From: Bdellovibrionales bacterium
GTDB lineage: Bacteria > Bdellovibrionota > Bdellovibrionia > Bdellovibrionales > JAMPXM01
DNA length: 64,000 nucleotides
Assembly (NCBI GenBank): GCA_043739185.1
Contig: JAYUEN010000332.1
Location: forward strand, 1 to 64,000
Reading direction: 5' to 3'
Position numbers and translations under genes: made by a program. Of this stretch, positions 2,213 through 11,431 are shown one piece after another; positions within the stretch are counted from its first letter, which is position 1, and every line of letters begins with the position of its first letter. Below the pieces are notes generated by a model that was not told the DNA's origin, searched no databases, and saw only the letters and a program-made list of their open reading frames with translations.

Positions 2213-3333
2213 TGGACTCACTTTCAATTTTGCATATTTGCCCGCGACCAAGTTTTTCTGGCCTTGAAGCCTATGCGCTTTCACTTGCCATTGAACAAAA
2301 AAATCGCGGTTTGAATATCGCCATGATGGTTTTACCAAATTCACCCTTGAGCGAGAAATGCCAAGGTCACCAAATTTCGGTGCTCACTAAAAGTTCTGAA
2401 TTTACGAGTGCGCTTCGATCAAAAAACTGGCAAATTCTGCATTTGCATAGCACACAAGATTTAAAAATCGTTTTGCCCTCCTTATTTCTGGCAAAGTTAC
2501 GCGGTCAAATTTTGCCAAAAATTGTATTGCAGACTCACATTTTAATTAGTCATTCCAAAAAAGACCCTTTGCATTTTCTCGAATATTTATTTGTCGATGA
2601 AATGTGGTGTTCAAGTTCACCTGCGAAAGCGCTCCTGACTGCCCACATCCCAATTGCCCCAGAGAGAATAAAGGTCATTCGCTACGGTCGAGACATCGAA
2701 GCAACCACTGGTGGCTTCTTAAGTCGTGAGGCTTCCCGTCAAGCTCTCGGCGTGGCCAATGATGCAATTGTGGTAGGACTGGTGAGCCGCATCGATCCAC
2801 AAAAAGGAATTCGCGAGTTTTTAGAAGGTGCCATACCAATTCTAGAAAGAGAAGCTCGGCTCAATTTGGTTTTCATTGGCGGACGCACCGAAAATGATCC
2901 CAAATCCTGGGCCTATCTTGAAGACCTTGAGAAGTTTCATCAAAAGCTTGAGCCTTCAATTGCACAGAGAATTCATTTTAAAGGTGCAATGAAAGATTCT
3001 TACCAGTATATGACGGGGCTCGATCTTTATGCCCTACCTAGCTACAAAGAATGTTTTGCATTGAGTTTATTAGAGGCTCAGTTAGCAGGGCTCCCGGTAT
3101 TGGGAACCTCTTCTGGAGGCACGCCTGATATTGTGATCGAGGACCAAACCGGATTTTTATTTGAGCCCGAAAGCGCCCCGTCGGCAGGTGAAGCCTTAAA
3201 ACGCGCCTTAACAAAGCAAAATCTCTGGAAGGACTTCGGCGCTCGGGCGCGAGCGCGGGTGATTGAAGAATTCGATTTTAAAAAGATCTGTGGTCTCGTT
3301 ATCGAGAAATATCTTAGGCTTGCAAATTCTTAG
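2209..3333 (+). CDS. Glycosyltransferase family 4 (GT-B)
   Basis: VSRIDPQKG, ALPSYKECFALSLLEA, GGTPDIV..TGFLF; ATGA overlap with the HAD gene. Confidence 0.88.
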   Translation: MMDSLSILHICPRPSFSGLEAYALSLAIEQKNRGLNIAMMVLPNSPLSEKCQGHQISVLTKSSEFTSALRSKNWQILHLHSTQDLKIVLPSLFLAKLRGQILPKIVLQTHILISHSKKDPLHFLEYLFVDEMWCSSSPAKALLTAHIPIAPERIKVIRYGRDIEATTGGFLSREASRQALGVANDAIVVGLVSRIDPQKGIREFLEGAIPILEREARLNLVFIGGRTENDPKSWAYLEDLEKFHQKLEPSIAQRIHFKGAMKDSYQYMTGLDLYALPSYKECFALSLLEAQLAGLPVLGTSSGGTPDIVIEDQTGFLFEPESAPSAGEALKRALTKQNLWKDFGARARARVIEEFDFKKICGLVIEKYLRLANS

Positions 3334-4079
3334 TCGCTAGTACCAGAATGAGCGGCTCGCTCTTGGGTTTTTATATTCGACCTACTTAAACTTTCTACCG
3401 CGCTAAAAGTATCTTTGCTAGGAAAGCCAAATGTCCAATCGATGCCATCGCCTGTTAGTCCGAAAGTATTAAATTTAGCGGCGCCGTTGGTTCCGGCAAT
3501 CAACAATCGAGCACCTTGAGTTGATCCGGCATCATTCCATGAGTCTTGGCGCTTACCGGAATTACAAGCTTCAGACATTTGAGGCAAGTACGGCTTATCT
3601 TCCAACGAATATGAGGTTGTCTTTGAATCACCATCTTTAACCTCGGTAAATGCAACTTTGGTCTCAGAAAGCTTGCTTGATTTCATTGAAATTTTGACCC
3701 GACATTTTTGAATTGCCGCCAAAGTCTGGGCCTTGTCGGCTTCACTTATAAATTCTTTGGGTAATTTATTTTTCTGTGCACAAACAGCTCTGCGAATAGC
3801 CGTCATTGTTTTTGCAGAAAGTGGCGCATTCATTACAATTCCGGCAGAACCTTTATTCAAAAGCTCACCGCTATTTGAAGAGCCTAACATGCGAAGATCC
3901 ACACATTGAGCAGAGGATTTTCCTAGCGCTTTGGCAATACGCTCAGTAATCGCGTTTTGCATGCCTGGATCGGCTGCATTCGAAATATCGATGGTGTACA
4001 TATAAACTCGCGGTGCGTTTTCAGCATGGAGCTGTCCAGCCAAAAGCAAAGCAAAAGCAATAGCAAATATACCTCGCAT
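3330..4079 (-). CDS. Hypothetical secreted protein
   Basis: Signal peptide MRGIFAIAFALLLAGQLHA; AGGAGG RBS upstream; no recognised domain. Confidence 0.7.
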   Translation of the reverse strand: MRGIFAIAFALLLAGQLHAENAPRVYMYTIDISNAADPGMQNAITERIAKALGKSSAQCVDLRMLGSSNSGELLNKGSAGIVMNAPLSAKTMTAIRRAVCAQKNKLPKEFISEADKAQTLAAIQKCRVKISMKSSKLSETKVAFTEVKDGDSKTTSYSLEDKPYLPQMSEACNSGKRQDSWNDAGSTQGARLLIAGTNGAAKFNTFGLTGDGIDWTFGFPSKDTFSAVESLSRSNIKTQERAAHSGTSD

Positions 4080-4159: not shown

Positions 4160-4255
4160 ATGTACAACAAACCTAAAATGCTGCCAGTATATACTGACCC
4201 ACTGAAGACCGACCACCGAAACTGCCAAGCGGCTAACAGCTGCGGCTGCCGTTAA
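4160..4255 (+). CDS. Candidate 31-aa Cys-rich small peptide MYNKPKMLPVYTDPLKTDHRNCQAANSCGCR
   Basis: GAGGAGG at 4141-4147 upstream of ATG 4160; in-frame TAA at 4253-4255; below the ORF-track size cutoff. Confidence 0.3.
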   Translation: MYNKPKMLPVYTDPLKTDHRNCQAANSCGCR

Positions 4256-4328
4256 AACTGCTTTGAATTCTAGATTTTAAACTAGTTTTCTTGGCAGCCG
4301 CAGCTGTTAGCCGCTTGGCAGTTTCGGT
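4215..4328. repeat. 114-bp palindrome with perfect 36-bp inverted arms (REPIN/MITE-like)
   Basis: ACCGAAACTGCCAAGCGGCTAACAGCTGCGGCTGCC (4215-4250) has its exact reverse complement at 4293-4328; the AT-rich spacer is also mostly self-complementary around TCTAGA (4269-4274). Confidence 0.95.
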
Positions 4329-4528: not shown

Positions 4529-7500
4529 TTGGTGAGTACAAAACCTATTTTAATAGTGGCCGAAAAGCCATCGGTGGCACGCGATATCGCAAAAGTCGTG
4601 AAAGCCAATCGCCTTCAGCGTGGTTATATTGAGGGCGATACCCATATCGTCACTTGGGCAATTGGGCATCTTGTGACTTTGCCTGAGCCTCATCAAATCA
4701 ATTTGAAATGGAAGACCTGGAGCTTGGCCCAGCTTCCGATGTTGCCGACTGAGTGGCCACTCGTTGCAAGCGCGCGAACCATAGAGCAATATGAAGTTGT
4801 TCGAAAATTAATGGATGCTTGTGATTCCGTAATTTGTGCCACAGATGCCGGACGTGAAGGCGAACTCATCTTTCGCTATATTTATGAATTGGCAGCTTGT
4901 CAGAAGCCAGTGAAGCGTCTGTGGATTTCTTCTCTTACGAAGCAAGCAATCGAAACCGGATTGAATAAGCTCAAGGACTCAAGTGAATTTGATAGTCTTG
5001 CCGATGCGGCTCGCGCCCGAAGTCGCGCGGATTGGCTTGTCGGAATGAATTTATCTCGTGCTTATGCTCTCAAATCCCAAGAGCAACTATTTGTAGGCCG
5101 TGTTCAGACTCCTACCTTGGCGATGATTGTTGAGCGCGATCTTAAAATTCGGGATTTCATCTCTGAAGAATACGAAACTATTGAAGCCGAATTTGAAGCT
5201 GGATCAAAGTTCAAAGCCAATTATCTCGGTGAACAAGATGAAATTAAAAAGCCGATGATCCGTGCGAAAGAAAAACGCTTTCCGCGCAAATCAGAAAACA
5301 TTGCGACTGTTCTAAAGAGGTTTTTCGAAGGCTCTTCTCAGATTTTGCAAAACGAATCTAAAAAGAATGTGACTCCACCACCACTTCTGTATGATTTAAC
5401 CGATTTGCAACGAAGTGCGAACCAGACTTATTCCTTTTCGGCAAATCAGACTTTGGAGCTTGCACAGAGTCTTTATGAAAAGCACAAATTGATTAGTTAT
5501 CCACGTACTGGGAGCCAACACCTATCTGTAAGTGTGGCGCAGACCTTGCCTGATATTGTAAAAGCCATTCGTGAACCATACGAAGAGCTGATCGAAAACT
5601 TCACGGGCGCCGCAGTTTTGAGCAATCGGTTTGTTGATGATACCCAAGTCACCGATCACCATGCGATTATACCTACGGGCAAGAATGGGCCTCATCGCGC
5701 GCTCAGTTCAGATGAAAGCAAAATCTATGATCTCATTTGCCGAAGACTATTATCTGCTTGGCAACCAGATAATATTGCAGAGGTGACAAATATTTTAGTT
5801 ATCAGTGCGCAAAAAGATATTTTTAAGACTACGGGCACAGTGATTTCTCAAATCGGCTGGAAGAAACTCCTTGTGACCACGAGAGACCGCAACGTCCAGG
5901 CTACACTTCCCGCAGGACTCTTGCCCGGCACTTCTGTTAAACCAGTTTCTGCAAAAGCCTTGCCGAAAAAAACCGAGCCCCCTCCACATCTCAACGACGC
6001 TACTCTGCTGAGCCTCATGGAATCCGCAGGTAAAAACATTGACAATGTTGAGCTTGCTCGAGCCATGAAAGACTCGGGCCTTGGTACTCCTGCGACTCGC
6101 GCCAATATCATTGAGACTCTTGTTACGCGAAATTATATTGAGCGAAAAGCCAAATCAATTATCGCGACCGAGTTGGGGCATCGCCTGATTTCGGTGGTTC
6201 ATCCATCGGTGAAGAGCCCTGAGCTGACGGGTCGCTGGGAGAAAAAGCTTTCTGAAATTCAAAATAAAAAAGAGTCTCTAGCTCAATTTATCTCTGAACT
6301 TGAGACTGAAATTGCGTTACGTATCAAAGAAATCAAAGAGCAACAAGCGCCAGTAGCAGCAGTGGCGGCGCCCTTAGTTGAGACCAGAAAAAAGACCGCG
6401 CCTGAAGACTTGGCAAAACTTTTGAAAAATCGATTTGGATTTAAAGAGTTCAGACAATCTCAAGAAGCTGTTTGCAAAGCCGTTGTTGCTGGGAAAAATA
6501 TTTTATTGGTCATGCCGACTGGCGCGGGCAAATCGCTCTGCTATCAATTGCCAACTATCGCTCGCGGCGGAACTTGCCTTGTGATCAGTCCCCTCATTGC
6601 ACTTATTGAAGATCAAGTGGCAAAGCTTTCCTCACTTGGCTTTGCTGCTGAACGTATACACTCGGGGAGAACACGTGAGGACTCACGAAACATCTGCAGA
6701 AAGTATCTGCAAAACGAACTTGATTTTCTTTTTATTTCACCAGAACGCTTGGGCGTACCTGGATTTTCTGAATTTCTTGCGCGCATTCCTTTGGCGCTTA
6801 TTGCAGTTGATGAGGCCCATTGTATTTCTCAGTGGGGCCATGATTTTCGTCCGGACTATCGACTTCTGGGTGAACGAATCAAAGATTTTGGCTTGACGCC
6901 TATTATTGCGATGACTGCAACTGCTACTCCAATTGTTCAAGATGACATTTGCAAACAGCTCAATTTAAAAAATGAAAGCCGTTATATTGAGGGATTTCGC
7001 CGGTCGAATATCAATATCCAAGTTGTAGAAGTAGCGCCAAGCGAAAGGGAAAACTCTATTTTTAAAATACTTAAAACTAAAGATCGTGTTCCCGCCATTG
7101 TGTATGCTCCGACTCGTAAAAAAACCGTAGAGCTTAGTGAAGCTCTTTCAGAAAAATTTCGCACCGGCTCTTATCATGCCGGAATGACTCCCGAAGCACG
7201 CAGTCGCGTTCAAACAGATTTCATCAACGGAAAACTAGATGTCATCATTGCAACGGTCGCATTTGGAATGGGAATCGATAAACCGAATGTTCGCACTGTG
7301 ATCCATGCAAGTCTGCCTGGCAGTGTTGAGGCTTACTATCAGGAGATTGGGAGGGCCGGGCGAGACGGAAAAACCTCAGAAGCTTATTTGCTTTATTCTT
7401 ATGCGGATCAGAAGACCCACGAGTTTTTTCTTGAAATGAATTATCCTAGCCAAAGCGTTCTACAGAAAATTTATTCGCAATTGCGAGATGATGTATCAGT

Positions 7501-8425
7501 TGAAAAAAATTATATAAGAAGTCAGTTGACCACCTTAGACTCTCAGGTTTTTGAACGCGCCATTGAACAACTTTGGGTTCATCGTGGAGCTCTTGTTGAT
7601 CCAGATGAAAGCATGAAACGTGGGTCCGATGCCTGGTTGATCACCTACCCTGAGCAGCGCAGACAAAAAGAGCTCCAACTTGAACAAATTTGGAGTTACG
7701 CAAATGGTGGCACAGTGAAACGCTGTCGCATGCAGACACTAGTAGCTCACTTTGGTGACCGCGCCGAAATAGAAATCCGGTGTGAAGCCTGCGATATTTG
7801 CAAACCTGAAAACAGAGTTTCATTGATTGCAAAACGTCAATTGAGCACGCAAGAGGAGAATTTAGTCGTTCAGATTTTTCAAATCTTATCGCAAGAAAAA
7901 AATCAGGCCATGGGTCGTATTTTTGATCGTCTCACGCAGACTGCGCCGAAATTGAAAAGGCAGATTTTTGAGCGCTTGATCGCAGAACTTGAACGCCTTG
8001 GTCAAGTCATTCTCGTTGAAGACTCTTTTGAGAAAAATGGTGAGTTGATTCGATATAGAAAAGCAGCTTTGCATCCTCAAGCGCGCATTCAAAATTTTGA
8101 TATGAGCGCAATTCAGATTTCTGGTAACGCGCCTAAAAAAAGATTATCAAAGAAAAAAGAGCGCGTAGCAAAAAGTTCTAAGTTAAGAAAAAAGCGAGAT
8201 GTTGGAGTTTTAAATGGGTCTCCTGACTTTGAGCGGATAAGGGCTTGGCGGCTTTCGCAAGCACGACGTTTAGGGATTCCTGCTTTTCGAATATTAACTG
8301 ATCGCGTGCTCGAGACAATTTGCGAAGTTCGTCCTGCTAATAAAACTCAGCTCCGTGCTATTTCGGGAGTGGGTCAAAAGGCTGTTGAGCAATATGGTGA
8401 TGAGATCGTAGCTCTTCTCATCTAA
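4529..8425 (+). CDS. DNA topoisomerase III - RecQ helicase fusion (TOPRIM + topo IA core + RecQ helicase + Zn-binding/RQC + HRDC)
   Basis: TopB motifs AEKPSVA, ATDAGREGELIF, GRVQTPTL, ISYPRT, DHHAIIPT, GLGTPATRA. RecQ motifs MPTGAGKSLCYQ, DEAHCISQWGHDFRPDY, TATAT, ATVAFGMGIDK, YYQEIGRAGRDG, CRM..CEACDIC. C-terminal HRDC (WRLSQARRLGIPAFRIL..ISGVG). One uninterrupted frame. Confidence 0.93.
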   Translation: MVSTKPILIVAEKPSVARDIAKVVKANRLQRGYIEGDTHIVTWAIGHLVTLPEPHQINLKWKTWSLAQLPMLPTEWPLVASARTIEQYEVVRKLMDACDSVICATDAGREGELIFRYIYELAACQKPVKRLWISSLTKQAIETGLNKLKDSSEFDSLADAARARSRADWLVGMNLSRAYALKSQEQLFVGRVQTPTLAMIVERDLKIRDFISEEYETIEAEFEAGSKFKANYLGEQDEIKKPMIRAKEKRFPRKSENIATVLKRFFEGSSQILQNESKKNVTPPPLLYDLTDLQRSANQTYSFSANQTLELAQSLYEKHKLISYPRTGSQHLSVSVAQTLPDIVKAIREPYEELIENFTGAAVLSNRFVDDTQVTDHHAIIPTGKNGPHRALSSDESKIYDLICRRLLSAWQPDNIAEVTNILVISAQKDIFKTTGTVISQIGWKKLLVTTRDRNVQATLPAGLLPGTSVKPVSAKALPKKTEPPPHLNDATLLSLMESAGKNIDNVELARAMKDSGLGTPATRANIIETLVTRNYIERKAKSIIATELGHRLISVVHPSVKSPELTGRWEKKLSEIQNKKESLAQFISELETEIALRIKEIKEQQAPVAAVAAPLVETRKKTAPEDLAKLLKNRFGFKEFRQSQEAVCKAVVAGKNILLVMPTGAGKSLCYQLPTIARGGTCLVISPLIALIEDQVAKLSSLGFAAERIHSGRTREDSRNICRKYLQNELDFLFISPERLGVPGFSEFLARIPLALIAVDEAHCISQWGHDFRPDYRLLGERIKDFGLTPIIAMTATATPIVQDDICKQLNLKNESRYIEGFRRSNINIQVVEVAPSERENSIFKILKTKDRVPAIVYAPTRKKTVELSEALSEKFRTGSYHAGMTPEARSRVQTDFINGKLDVIIATVAFGMGIDKPNVRTVIHASLPGSVEAYYQEIGRAGRDGKTSEAYLLYSYADQKTHEFFLEMNYPSQSVLQKIYSQLRDDVSVEKNYIRSQLTTLDSQVFERAIEQLWVHRGALVDPDESMKRGSDAWLITYPEQRRQKELQLEQIWSYANGGTVKRCRMQTLVAHFGDRAEIEIRCEACDICKPENRVSLIAKRQLSTQEENLVVQIFQILSQEKNQAMGRIFDRLTQTAPKLKRQIFERLIAELERLGQVILVEDSFEKNGELIRYRKAALHPQARIQNFDMSAIQISGNAPKKRLSKKKERVAKSSKLRKKRDVGVLNGSPDFERIRAWRLSQARRLGIPAFRILTDRVLETICEVRPANKTQLRAISGVGQKAVEQYGDEIVALLI

Positions 8426-8491: not shown

Positions 8492-11431
8492 CTACTCTTT
8501 GTTATCTTTATTAATCAAAGCAGCAAATGGATTATTAAACGGCGATTGTTGCTGACGTTGGCCTGGACGCTGATTTTGCTGTGGTCGATTTTGATTTCCA
8601 GGTCGTTGCTCTCGAGCTTGAGGTGCTTGCTGAGATCGCTCCGCTTGTGCAGGTGCTGCCGCAGGAGTTGCAGTTTCAGTTGCAGCTGGCACTTCAGCAT
8701 TAGGCACCGGTCGATCTCGCTTCATTTCTTTTTTCTTTGGAGGCTTTGCTGCTAAACGCTCCCGCACAATCTGACTTGCGGTTTTATGTTTATTAGCTTC
8801 GCGTTGCTTTCCAAAAAGATCTGCTTGAGCCTGAGGAGTCAAATTTTTAGCCATTGGAGTTTCAGTAGCGTTTCGATCTGACCTTGGGCCACGATCAGGG
8901 CGATCTCCCCTTGGACGTTGCTCATTTCGATCTGGTCTTTCGCCAGCCGGACGCGCCATCTTCTCTTCGAAATCTTGACGGTACTTCTTTTCATTCGGAT
9001 TTTTTGCTGGCTGTACAAAATCATCTTTTGGAGGACGATTATCACGTCTCGGTGGTCTTGGGCCCCGATTGTCTCTTGGTGGACGTGGCCCTCGAGCTTG
9101 CATATCTCTTTCAGAAGGAGCTCCTGGCTCCCGCGGGCCTCTCGGGCCTCGTGGCCGCTGATCATTTCTTGGCCTGCGAGCTCCGCGATCATCAGCACCA
9201 CCAGAATTATCTCTGTTATTGTCTCTGGCATTTTCACTTGCCGATCGTGGCATTTGCTTTGGTCGCTCATCTAGTAGCATCGTCAACGAGATTTGTTTTT
9301 TATCTAAATCAACTGTTAAAACCTTTATCGTAACTTGATCTCCCGGATTCACAACTTTGCGAGGATCATCAATAAACTGATGCGACAATTGTGAAAGATG
9401 AACCAAACCATCTTGATGAACACCAATATCAACAAAGGCGCCAAAGTTAGTCACATTGCTCACAATACCCGGACAAATCATTCCGGCTTTTAAGTCTTTC
9501 ATTTCGAAAATATCATCACGATAGGCAAAGACTTTGAATGGATCACGCGGATCTCGTCCGGGCTTTTCAAGCTCTCTCACAATATCATCAAAAGTAAATT
9601 CGCCAACCAATGCAGCCCACTTGGTTCGAACTTCAAGTAATTTTTTAGCACCTTCGCCAATCAATTGAGAAATTTGCACACCTAGCTCATGTGACATATC
9701 TCGAACCGCAGTATAGCGCTCGGGATGAATTCCGGTTTGATCAAGCAAAACCTTACCGCCATTAATTCTTAAAAAGCCACCGCACTGCTCATAAACTTTA
9801 CTCGTGAATCGGCCCACCTTCATAAGCTGAGTGCGATCTTCAAAGAGGCCATTGGTTTTTCTAAAATCAACAATATTTTTTGCGAGTACTGGGCCAATCC
9901 CCGAAACATGAGACAAGAGCGGTGCCGAGGCCGTATTGAGATCAACACCGACATTGTTCACACAGCTTTCAACAACTGCTTCAAGGCTCTTAACTAAATG
10001 GGCTTGAGTGACATCATGTTGATATTGACCCACTCCAATAGATTTTGGATCTACTTTTACGAGTTCTGCGAGAGGATCTTGCAATCTGCGGGCAATTGAA
10101 ATAGCTCCCCTGACAGTTAAATCTAATTCTGGAAATTCTTCGCGAGCGACATCACTTGCCGAATATACACTGGCACCCGACTCGCTCACCATGATGACAG
10201 GAATGGCGGCATCAATATCTTTCAAAACTTTTCTTAAAAATATTTCAGCTTCTCTGCCGCCGGTACCATTACCAACTGCGACTGCATCGATTTTTATTTG
10301 CTTCAAAACTTCTGCAAACAAACTCTTGGCCTTTTCTTCTGCCCCATCGCCTTGAACGTGCAAAACCGTGTGTGAAATGAAATTGCCTTGTTTATCAATT
10401 AAGGCCAATTTGCAGCCAGTGCGAAGACCAGGATCAACTCCTAATACACAGCGTGAACCAAATGGACTTGAAAGTAGAACTCGGCGAACATTTTCAGCAA
10501 AGACCATGATCGCATCTTTATCTGCTTTGTCTTTGAGTACGCGGTGAACTTCATTGGTAATCGATGGATAAACATGCACTGTCAATGCCACTTGAGCACA
10601 AGCTTTTAAAAATTGCGCGCTTTGATTATCAATATTAGTAAGCGCATAAGCTTCAAACTTTTTCAGGAGTAATTCTTCATCGCCTTGTATGGTGACGGCA
10701 AGTTCGCCCTCCGTCCAACCTCGGCGCATAGCTAAATAGCGATGCGAATGTTTAGACTCTTGAAGGCTCTTTACGCTTTCAGCAAAGTCTTTATACATTT
10801 CATATTTAGAATGCGTCTTAAATTCTTTTGTACTTTTTGAAACCACGCCACCAAAGCCAAAAAAGTTAGAACGTACAGCTTCTCTGAGCTCAGGATTATT
10901 TGAGATTTTCTCAACAATAATATCTTGAGCACCTTTTAAAGCGAGCTCGTAAGTTATAAAGCCCAGGGCTGGGTTGATGAAATCCTTGGCTTTCACTTCG
11001 AGAGTAGTTTCGTCTGTCAATTCACCTTGCCCTAAAGACCAGATCCAATTTGCAAGTGGCTCAAGGCCTGCTTCGCGAGCCAATGTTGCCTTGGTTTTCT
11101 TTTTCTTTTTGAACGGACGATAAATTTCTTCAAGTTCGCCTAGGTCAAAACTCATATCCAGACGCTTTTTAATTTCGTCTGTCAAATTTCCCTGAGATTC
11201 AATTTCTTTTAATACAAATTCGCGGCGTTTATTAATTTCAGCAAAGGTTTCACTCGCCTCTAAAATTTGACGAATTTCAACTTCGTCTAAATTGCCGGTC
11301 TTTTCTTTACGGTATCTAGCTATAAATGGGACGGTACCGCCCTCGGCATGCAAATCTAAAACCGCTTGCACAGATTTCGGCGCAAATTTTGCTTCGATCT
11401 TATGTAAATATTGATTAAAATCTAATGTCAT
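8492..11431 (-). CDS. tex: Tex-family RNA-binding transcription accessory protein with long disordered C-terminal tail
   Basis: TVPFIARYRKEKTG, GVDPGLRTGCK, SESGASVYSAS, IGVGQYQHDV, S1 domain VTNFGAFVDIGVHQDGLVHLS. Confidence 0.93.
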   Translation of the reverse strand: MTLDFNQYLHKIEAKFAPKSVQAVLDLHAEGGTVPFIARYRKEKTGNLDEVEIRQILEASETFAEINKRREFVLKEIESQGNLTDEIKKRLDMSFDLGELEEIYRPFKKKKKTKATLAREAGLEPLANWIWSLGQGELTDETTLEVKAKDFINPALGFITYELALKGAQDIIVEKISNNPELREAVRSNFFGFGGVVSKSTKEFKTHSKYEMYKDFAESVKSLQESKHSHRYLAMRRGWTEGELAVTIQGDEELLLKKFEAYALTNIDNQSAQFLKACAQVALTVHVYPSITNEVHRVLKDKADKDAIMVFAENVRRVLLSSPFGSRCVLGVDPGLRTGCKLALIDKQGNFISHTVLHVQGDGAEEKAKSLFAEVLKQIKIDAVAVGNGTGGREAEIFLRKVLKDIDAAIPVIMVSESGASVYSASDVAREEFPELDLTVRGAISIARRLQDPLAELVKVDPKSIGVGQYQHDVTQAHLVKSLEAVVESCVNNVGVDLNTASAPLLSHVSGIGPVLAKNIVDFRKTNGLFEDRTQLMKVGRFTSKVYEQCGGFLRINGGKVLLDQTGIHPERYTAVRDMSHELGVQISQLIGEGAKKLLEVRTKWAALVGEFTFDDIVRELEKPGRDPRDPFKVFAYRDDIFEMKDLKAGMICPGIVSNVTNFGAFVDIGVHQDGLVHLSQLSHQFIDDPRKVVNPGDQVTIKVLTVDLDKKQISLTMLLDERPKQMPRSASENARDNNRDNSGGADDRGARRPRNDQRPRGPRGPREPGAPSERDMQARGPRPPRDNRGPRPPRRDNRPPKDDFVQPAKNPNEKKYRQDFEEKMARPAGERPDRNEQRPRGDRPDRGPRSDRNATETPMAKNLTPQAQADLFGKQREANKHKTASQIVRERLAAKPPKKKEMKRDRPVPNAEVPAATETATPAAAPAQAERSQQAPQAREQRPGNQNRPQQNQRPGQRQQQSPFNNPFAALINKDNKE

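Follow-up and report, generated by a model that had tools for sequence, protein, structure and literature searches.

Here, we describe a natural fusion of bacterial topoisomerase III (Topo III, TopB) and a RecQ-family helicase, encoded in a 64,000-nucleotide stretch of a Bdellovibrionales genome (assembly GCA_043739185.1, contig JAYUEN010000332.1, positions 1 to 64,000; hereafter the window). We propose, from its sequence and by analogy with the Escherichia coli enzymes, that its likeliest role is that of a single-chain helicase-fed decatenase, with a probability of about 0.6. The open reading frame (ORF; 4529-8425, + strand) begins with TTG, contains zero internal stops and encodes 1298 residues, and ORF, Pfam and NCBIfam analyses describe the whole gene as a Topo III-RecQ-winged helix-HRDC fusion, in the order Topo III, flexible linker, RecQ motor, Zn site, winged helix and HRDC from the N to the C terminus. 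Sequence evidence supports one natural, conserved chain holding two intact-looking enzymes. A preliminary description of this DNA had read a TopB core, an Ala/Pro linker, a RecQ core and an HRDC domain in one 1298-residue ORF, a reading borne out by ORF, Pfam, NCBIfam and alignment; the domains that it listed were all found, while the winged helix (residues ~1103-1194), an insert (~975-1031) and a glycine at position 328 had been overlooked. The physical tie that it proposed between a RecQ motor and Topo III exists as a covalent link.

Conservation was assessed in an alignment of 120 rows (the query and 119 homologues, with the window's own database copy dropped), in which the catalytic residues of both halves are kept in 118-120 rows. 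The N-terminal half is assigned to bacterial Topo III, with strand cleavage, relaxation and decatenation as its predicted activities. It passes the NCBIfam Topo III cut-offs (PRK07726, 659 > 597; TIGR01056, 550 > 516) and misses that of the TopA model (topA_bact, 204 < 456), and E. coli-type Topo III chains match its core from one end to the other (E 7e-87). The Toprim domain (residues 8-135; 4550..4933, +; PF01751 and conservation) holds Glu12, the Topo III-type Lys13 and the Asp106/Glu110 region, and is followed by a type IA core of Topo III type (residues 154-604; 4988..6340, +), with a Topoisom_bac match (PF01131) at residues 154-588 (E 6e-108). The active-site segment (5498..5512, +) comprises Tyr324, Pro325 and Arg326, each present in 120/120 rows, and Gly328 where aspartate is usual; the catalytic histidine and the second and third Toprim acids are likewise found in 120/120 rows. 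According to the accessible text of a type IA survey (PMC10969213), TopB is recognised by a lysine after the first Toprim glutamate and a proline after the catalytic tyrosine, and both are present here (Glu12-Lys13 in 118 rows, the other two being gaps; Tyr324-Pro325 in 120). Position 328 is Asp in 95 rows, as in E. coli Topo III, Gly in 23 and another residue in 2; the glycine is common to the window protein and its nearest relatives, and a literature search on the effect of Gly for Asp at this position returned nothing. Residues 499-516 (6023..6076, +) align gap-free to the matching E. coli-type segment, which would correspond to the Topo III decatenation loop.

The C-terminal half is a predicted RecQ-family helicase of a subtype differing from E. 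coli RecQ, passing the family cut-off (TIGR00614, 396 > 220) and failing that of the E. coli-type equivalog (TIGR01389, 502 < 640). Its motor of two RecA-like domains (residues 626-960; 6404..7408, +) was delimited by Pfam, NCBIfam, structure match and conservation, with Lys668, Asp761-His764 (DEAH), the aromatic loop and motif VI (938-945) as landmarks. Pfam matches in this half are DEAD (643-801), Helicase_C (843-947), RecQ_Zn_bind (1041-1092) and HRDC (1234-1296; 8228..8416, +; PF00570, E 1e-18), and the Zn-binding site (7649..7804, +; PF16124) is formed by Cys1066, Cys1085, Cys1088 and Cys1091. The Walker A lysine, DEAH box, aromatic loop, motif VI and four Zn cysteines are invariant (120/120 rows), in agreement with the intact motifs reported in the preliminary description. 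Inside the Zn-binding region lies an insert (residues about 975-1031; 7451..7621, +) with three helices and a hairpin in a winged-helix-like pattern in the modelled secondary structure, and many stand-alone RecQ-family proteins match continuously across it. The winged helix proper (residues about 1103-1194; 7835..8110, +), recognised by model and structural alignment, sits where RecQ proteins have the winged helix of the RQC region. A model of residues 950-1205, with a predicted local distance difference test score (pLDDT) of 92, places the insert before and the winged helix (pLDDT > 90) after the Zn site. In VIA-align, the winged helix matched Deinococcus radiodurans RecQ 410-518 (Z 8.4, root-mean-square deviation 3.1, 88 residues aligned) and PadR/MarR-type winged helices (best Z 10.9, PadR-type), Z values that mark a common fold rather than a function. 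Foldseek gave no match for the 950-1205 model at E ≤ 0.001, and Pfam gave neither an RQC match for the winged helix nor a useful match for the insert. A second linker (8111..8227, +), basic and poorly conserved in sequence (29-38% identity to close relatives), leads to the HRDC domain.

The two halves are joined by a flexible Ala/Pro linker (residues about 605-624; 6341..6400, +), recognised by low pLDDT. An AlphaFold2 model of residues 1-1200 has a mean pLDDT of 89 and is confident outside residues 609-617, to which values below 50 are confined; its predicted template modelling score of 0.60 does not fix the relative orientation of the modules. From anchor to anchor, the linker measures 45 residues in the window protein and 30-157 over the 120 rows. 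Among solved structures, residues 8-603 are matched best by Topo III (E 7e-87) and residues 625-972 by bacterial RecQ (E 2e-81), and none of the 60 chains shown covers both halves. A complex prediction for the topoisomerase half and the winged helix scored 0.00 in two runs, which weighs neither way on contact. At the nucleotide level, contigs of two sequencing runs, possibly the source of the window DNA, cover the whole gene with 0 differences, and variant-strain contigs from two further runs bridge 6340-6400 in frame with 13 and 15 substitutions and 0 gaps, all four runs coming from one single study. The junction check proposed beforehand, made on these contigs, showed no stop or frameshift, and neither absence from other genomes nor a dead half emerged at the sequence level. 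Rough ratios of nonsynonymous to synonymous change (pN/pS) against three relatives (69-76% identity), for which synonymous sites are saturated, were 0.21-0.29 for the topoisomerase, 0.13-0.19 for the motor and 0.40-0.50 for the winged helix.

The fusion is widespread but patchy. Full-length homologues spanning the junction had been sought, and all 120 listed (of 7999 scored) carry both domain sets with the topoisomerase first, under source names that include Bdellovibrionota and Acidobacteriota; some further records, partial but fused, bear the names Myxococcales, Myxococcaceae and Competibacteraceae. Database names cover one half only, either 'DNA topoisomerase 3' or RecQ. The 150 best representatives at 50% identity comprised 32 full fusions, 33 with parts of both halves, 50 with topoisomerase only and 35 with RecQ only, and the topoisomerase is N-terminal in every row holding both. 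Phylum samples, which include partly incomplete genomes and were scored at two to three candidates per genome, contained the fusion in 6 of 301 Bdellovibrionota genomes (own included) and in 5 of 201 from Acidobacteriota, the phylum of a Bryobacterales record (centre included). The RecQ half alone occurred in 31 genomes of the Bdellovibrionota sample (47-56% identity; 24 checked at the locus level) and in 11 of the Acidobacteriota sample. Within the host's order, 2 of 73 other genomes carry the fusion, as do 0 of 19 in the best-sampled genus; together with its presence in Acidobacteriota, this distribution did not uphold the suggested link to multi-chromosome filamentous growth. Genome G256 has fusion-type topoisomerase pieces where two of its contigs end, of which the second runs into the winged helix and then a stop codon; a complete RecQ half is encoded separately. 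A plasmid search found no record, among the best 5000, covering 80% of the protein in one place, and hence no sign of a plasmid-borne form among them.

Several related architectures were observed along the way. Acidobacteriota contain stand-alone RecQs of the same subtype with two tandem HRDC matches (L076, L078-L080, L083 and L084). Two proteins (P0423 and P0432) place this RecQ subtype behind an N-terminal region of 350-715 residues with a kinase-like start, as judged by eye. Moreover, recQ and topB adjoin in a Listeria record (L102:2519-6468), 23 bases apart and in the order opposite to that of the fusion.

The history of the family was examined with trees that were all quick LG+G4 searches. 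A tree of the topoisomerase (127 rows) has a branch that separates all 66 fused rows from 38 rows of ordinary TopB, with a support of 80 (98 in a 52-row subset). In the RecQ tree, stand-alone rows are scattered among fused ones. When 19 representatives that look stand-alone were added and 15 near-duplicate or long rows removed, the starred branches required at least 9 switches between the fused and stand-alone labels; fused rows occupy the three deepest positions, under a root that rests on long outgroup branches. Half-trees of 60 fusions have 23 of 57 splits in common (shuffled maximum 2) and a patristic r of 0.76. The simplest reading suggested by these trees is one old fusion followed by many losses and break-ups, with repeated fusion as a less likely alternative.

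Derivatives lacking the motor offer a further view of the lineage. Some part of the RecQ module is retained in 53 of 120 shorter homologues listed for the topoisomerase half, and the majority of these are truncated or frameshifted fusions. In 9, the winged helix follows the topoisomerase immediately, the motor, insert and Zn site being absent; 3 more among the representatives bring such Topo III-winged-helix proteins to 12 (P0122-P0126, P0137, P0203, P0213, P0223, P0410, P0411 and P0454), and the same architecture is noted for L101:1-1095. Of the 10 looked up, 3 have full-length cluster members from more than one record, the others being single records. The 12 proteins are spread over six positions within the fusion lineage, of which starred branches require five, and the hypothesis of one common origin was rejected (approximately unbiased test, p-AU 1e-35). 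On these trees, the motor appears to have been deleted at least five times, leaving Topo III on a RecQ winged helix. In ordinary TopB relatives, Cys-rich repeats sit at the position of the RecQ module, which may have taken over the DNA-binding role of the topoisomerase tail, with the winged helix as the part kept.

The fusion is the sole TopB, both in its own genome (a 540-contig assembly) and in 5/5 other fusion genomes tested. The own genome also has TopA, split over two contigs, and three other RecQ-family genes; it has one GyrA/ParC-family gene, and ParC was not found. We considered the fusion as a replacement for Topo IV and rejected it for lack of enrichment, a single GyrA/ParC gene occurring in 24/28 genomes without the fusion versus 13/15 with it.

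Based on the established chemistry of both families and on in-vitro work with the E. coli RecQ-Topo III pair (PMC13760219, PMC8191776), we propose the following course of events. The RecQ module (motor, Zn site, winged helix and HRDC) would bind a fork, gap or junction, and its motor would open single-stranded DNA at the expense of ATP; Topo III, held nearby on the flexible tether, would then cut the opened strand through Tyr324 and pass another strand or duplex through the gate. The outcome would be the unlinking of late replication intermediates, precatenanes and hemicatenanes, possibly also of D-loops or double Holliday junctions, dissolution of the latter being, by analogy, one possible activity. 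Since the RecQ module stands where ordinary TopB has its Cys-rich C-terminal repeats, it probably also serves to bring the topoisomerase to DNA, and the winged helix may be the minimal targeting unit. We infer both activities, their coupling, the substrate and this targeting role.

A bolder version, at distinctly less than even odds, sees an old dedicated 'toposome', i.e., a Topo III lineage without its own C-terminal repeats in which ATP-driven unwinding is coupled in cis. If true, the RecQ winged helix would be its targeting domain, the motor-less Topo III-winged-helix proteins would represent a second undescribed natural architecture, and, where a cell lacks Topo IV, the fusion would act alongside gyrase as its chief unlinking enzyme.

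Several observations weigh against the helicase-fed decatenase. Gly328 stands for a usually conserved Asp close to the active site. The halves are often apart (RecQ half alone in 31 genomes against 6 with the fusion in the host phylum), and of the 44 genomes in which the RecQ half stands by itself (three being partial matches), 42 gave no TopB match in a search with one query at E ≤ 1e-45, suggesting that RecQ of this type does not need the topoisomerase; G492, among these 44, has TopB at the ordinary level. Single GyrA/ParC genes are as common without the fusion as with it, and the agreement between the half-trees is also expected from plain co-inheritance, with 12 pairs of starred splits in conflict, 10 of them through one row. 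A clade of four short topoisomerase-only rows and a row in which Topo III carries nothing but HRDC (P0413), some of them maybe truncated records, also fall within the fusion lineage and speak against a strict need for the winged helix. In one full-length fusion (P0414), the motor has decayed, with no DEAD match and a Helicase_C match below the cut-off. Finally, the accessible text of PMC7140829 and PMC13244152 describes an in-vivo RecQ-Topo III partnership as poorly supported by E. coli genetics.

Some of these points recur in the alternative that we take most seriously, although we consider it rather unlikely, namely that the chain is two enzymes on a string without kinetic coupling, in which Topo III gains co-expression and a DNA-binding tail (winged helix and HRDC) while the motor has its own substrates. 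Repeated origin of motor-less Topo III-winged-helix proteins, the RecQ half being far commoner alone than fused in both phylum samples, a linker spanning 30 to 157 residues and the coexistence in G256 of a Topo III-winged-helix C-terminal part with a separate full RecQ half would all fit such an arrangement, but the motor is more strongly constrained than the topoisomerase in fused relatives, and the full chain is kept in 32 clusters with mutual identity under 50%. A nearly neutral read-through fusion of neighbouring genes, tolerated without advantage, seems improbable: recQ and topB do lie 23 bases apart in the Listeria record, the fusion state switches at least 9 times on the RecQ-half tree, and the gene neighbourhood is not conserved, yet the Listeria order is the reverse of that in the fusion, the topoisomerases of the fusions constitute a single lineage that lacks C-terminal repeats of its own, and drift would hardly yield repeated retention of exactly the winged helix.

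That the chain combines a superfamily 2 (SF2) motor with a type IA topoisomerase, like reverse gyrase, invites the idea of an enzyme that changes supercoiling directionally with ATP; we regard this as very improbable, given a reversed domain order, a disordered and variable linker and a TIGR01054 score of 129 < 472 from a match to the topoisomerase part only, and the distinction from reverse gyrase drawn in the preliminary description is confirmed by the order and the score. An artefact of assembly or gene calling that joined two genes might be suspected in a genome of 540 contigs, but its chance is close to negligible considering the same order in 119 other listed proteins from several sources and the gap-free bridging of the junction by variant contigs.

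The surroundings of the gene are variable. A topA gene (window <1-1445, - strand), cut by the contig end, starts ~3 kb upstream of the fusion on the opposite strand, and its remainder seems to be on contig C217; this closeness was not repeated at other loci. None of the five window neighbours recurs beside the gene at other loci, and among 16 loci compared, one neighbour recurs in three. A promoter scan returned one weak site, a number no higher than chance, and no RNA data set was listed as containing the gene. Between the upstream gene and the fusion lies a 114-base hairpin (4215-4328; 57-base arms, 88% complementary) with relatives on many contigs of the genome (26 matches for one 36-base arm, 114 for a wider stretch), which looks like a dispersed palindrome of the repetitive extragenic palindromic (REP) or miniature inverted-repeat transposable element (MITE) kind. 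Other genes nearby encode a Tex-family protein (8492-11431, -) with an unusually long, low-complexity Arg/Pro/Gln-rich tail of ~260 residues after the S1 domain, and a 249-residue protein (3330-4079, -) whose start resembles a signal peptide and for which Pfam gave no match.

The two enzymes and their cooperation were known before, and databases already contain the one-chain form, named after one of its halves. Our literature search, with most subscription papers and bioRxiv supplements outside its coverage, found no description of the fusion, and a term search of the accessible text and supplements of two type IA surveys found no mention of RecQ (PMC9369019, PMC10969213); PMC13476441 yielded nothing on the residues of interest. 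On a RecQ-Topo III unit in bacteria, the evidence diverges: the pair works in vitro, while reviews and a 2026 paper (PMC7140829, PMC13244152) give no interaction or genetic support in E. coli. It is this weak in-vivo support that makes the fusion useful: a natural, conserved one-chain form is the strongest evolutionary hint of such a unit, and it permits cis-versus-trans tests. The family also includes what amounts to a natural deletion series (the full chain, the RecQ half by itself, Topo III with winged helix, Topo III with HRDC, and a decayed motor), and a helicase and topoisomerase at 1:1 stoichiometry suit structural and single-molecule work on strand passage.

Compared with known systems, E. 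coli RecQ and TopB, acting with SSB, represent the same two enzyme families with the same catalytic motifs, and the accessible text of PMC13760219 reports that RecQ and Topo III catenate duplex circles in vitro in an ATPase-dependent manner. They are separate proteins, for which no physical interaction was observed according to the accessible parts of PMC7140829 and PMC13244152, whereas the fusion is one chain; its RecQ is also of another subtype (502 < 640), with an insert in the Zn region and a winged helix without a Pfam RQC match. Like the fusion, the eukaryotic dissolvasome (Sgs1-Top3-Rmi1; BLM-TOP3A-RMI1-RMI2) physically holds a RecQ-family motor to Topo III, but it does so non-covalently and needs RMI subunits, whereas the fusion is covalent, lacks an RMI subunit within the chain and has a topoisomerase of the bacterial TopB type, with a TOP3A match of only E 1e-14. 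An engineered yeast Top3-Sgs1 fusion was reportedly studied by Bennett and Wang in 2001, a work cited in PMC3905885. We found no RMI-type OB-fold Pfam domain in the fusion chain, the chain rather than the genome having been scanned; the accessible text of PMC13244152 names the decatenation loop as the bacterial counterpart of RMI. Reverse gyrase is likewise a natural single chain of an SF2 helicase-like module and a type IA topoisomerase, but it has the helicase first, is tightly coupled and belongs to hyperthermophiles, and the fusion stays below its cut-off (129 < 472). The nearest stand-alone relatives of the N-terminal half, ~40-45% identical, are ordinary TopB enzymes with Cys-rich C-terminal repeats, which lie outside the fusion lineage and carry their own repeats where the fusion has a whole RecQ module.

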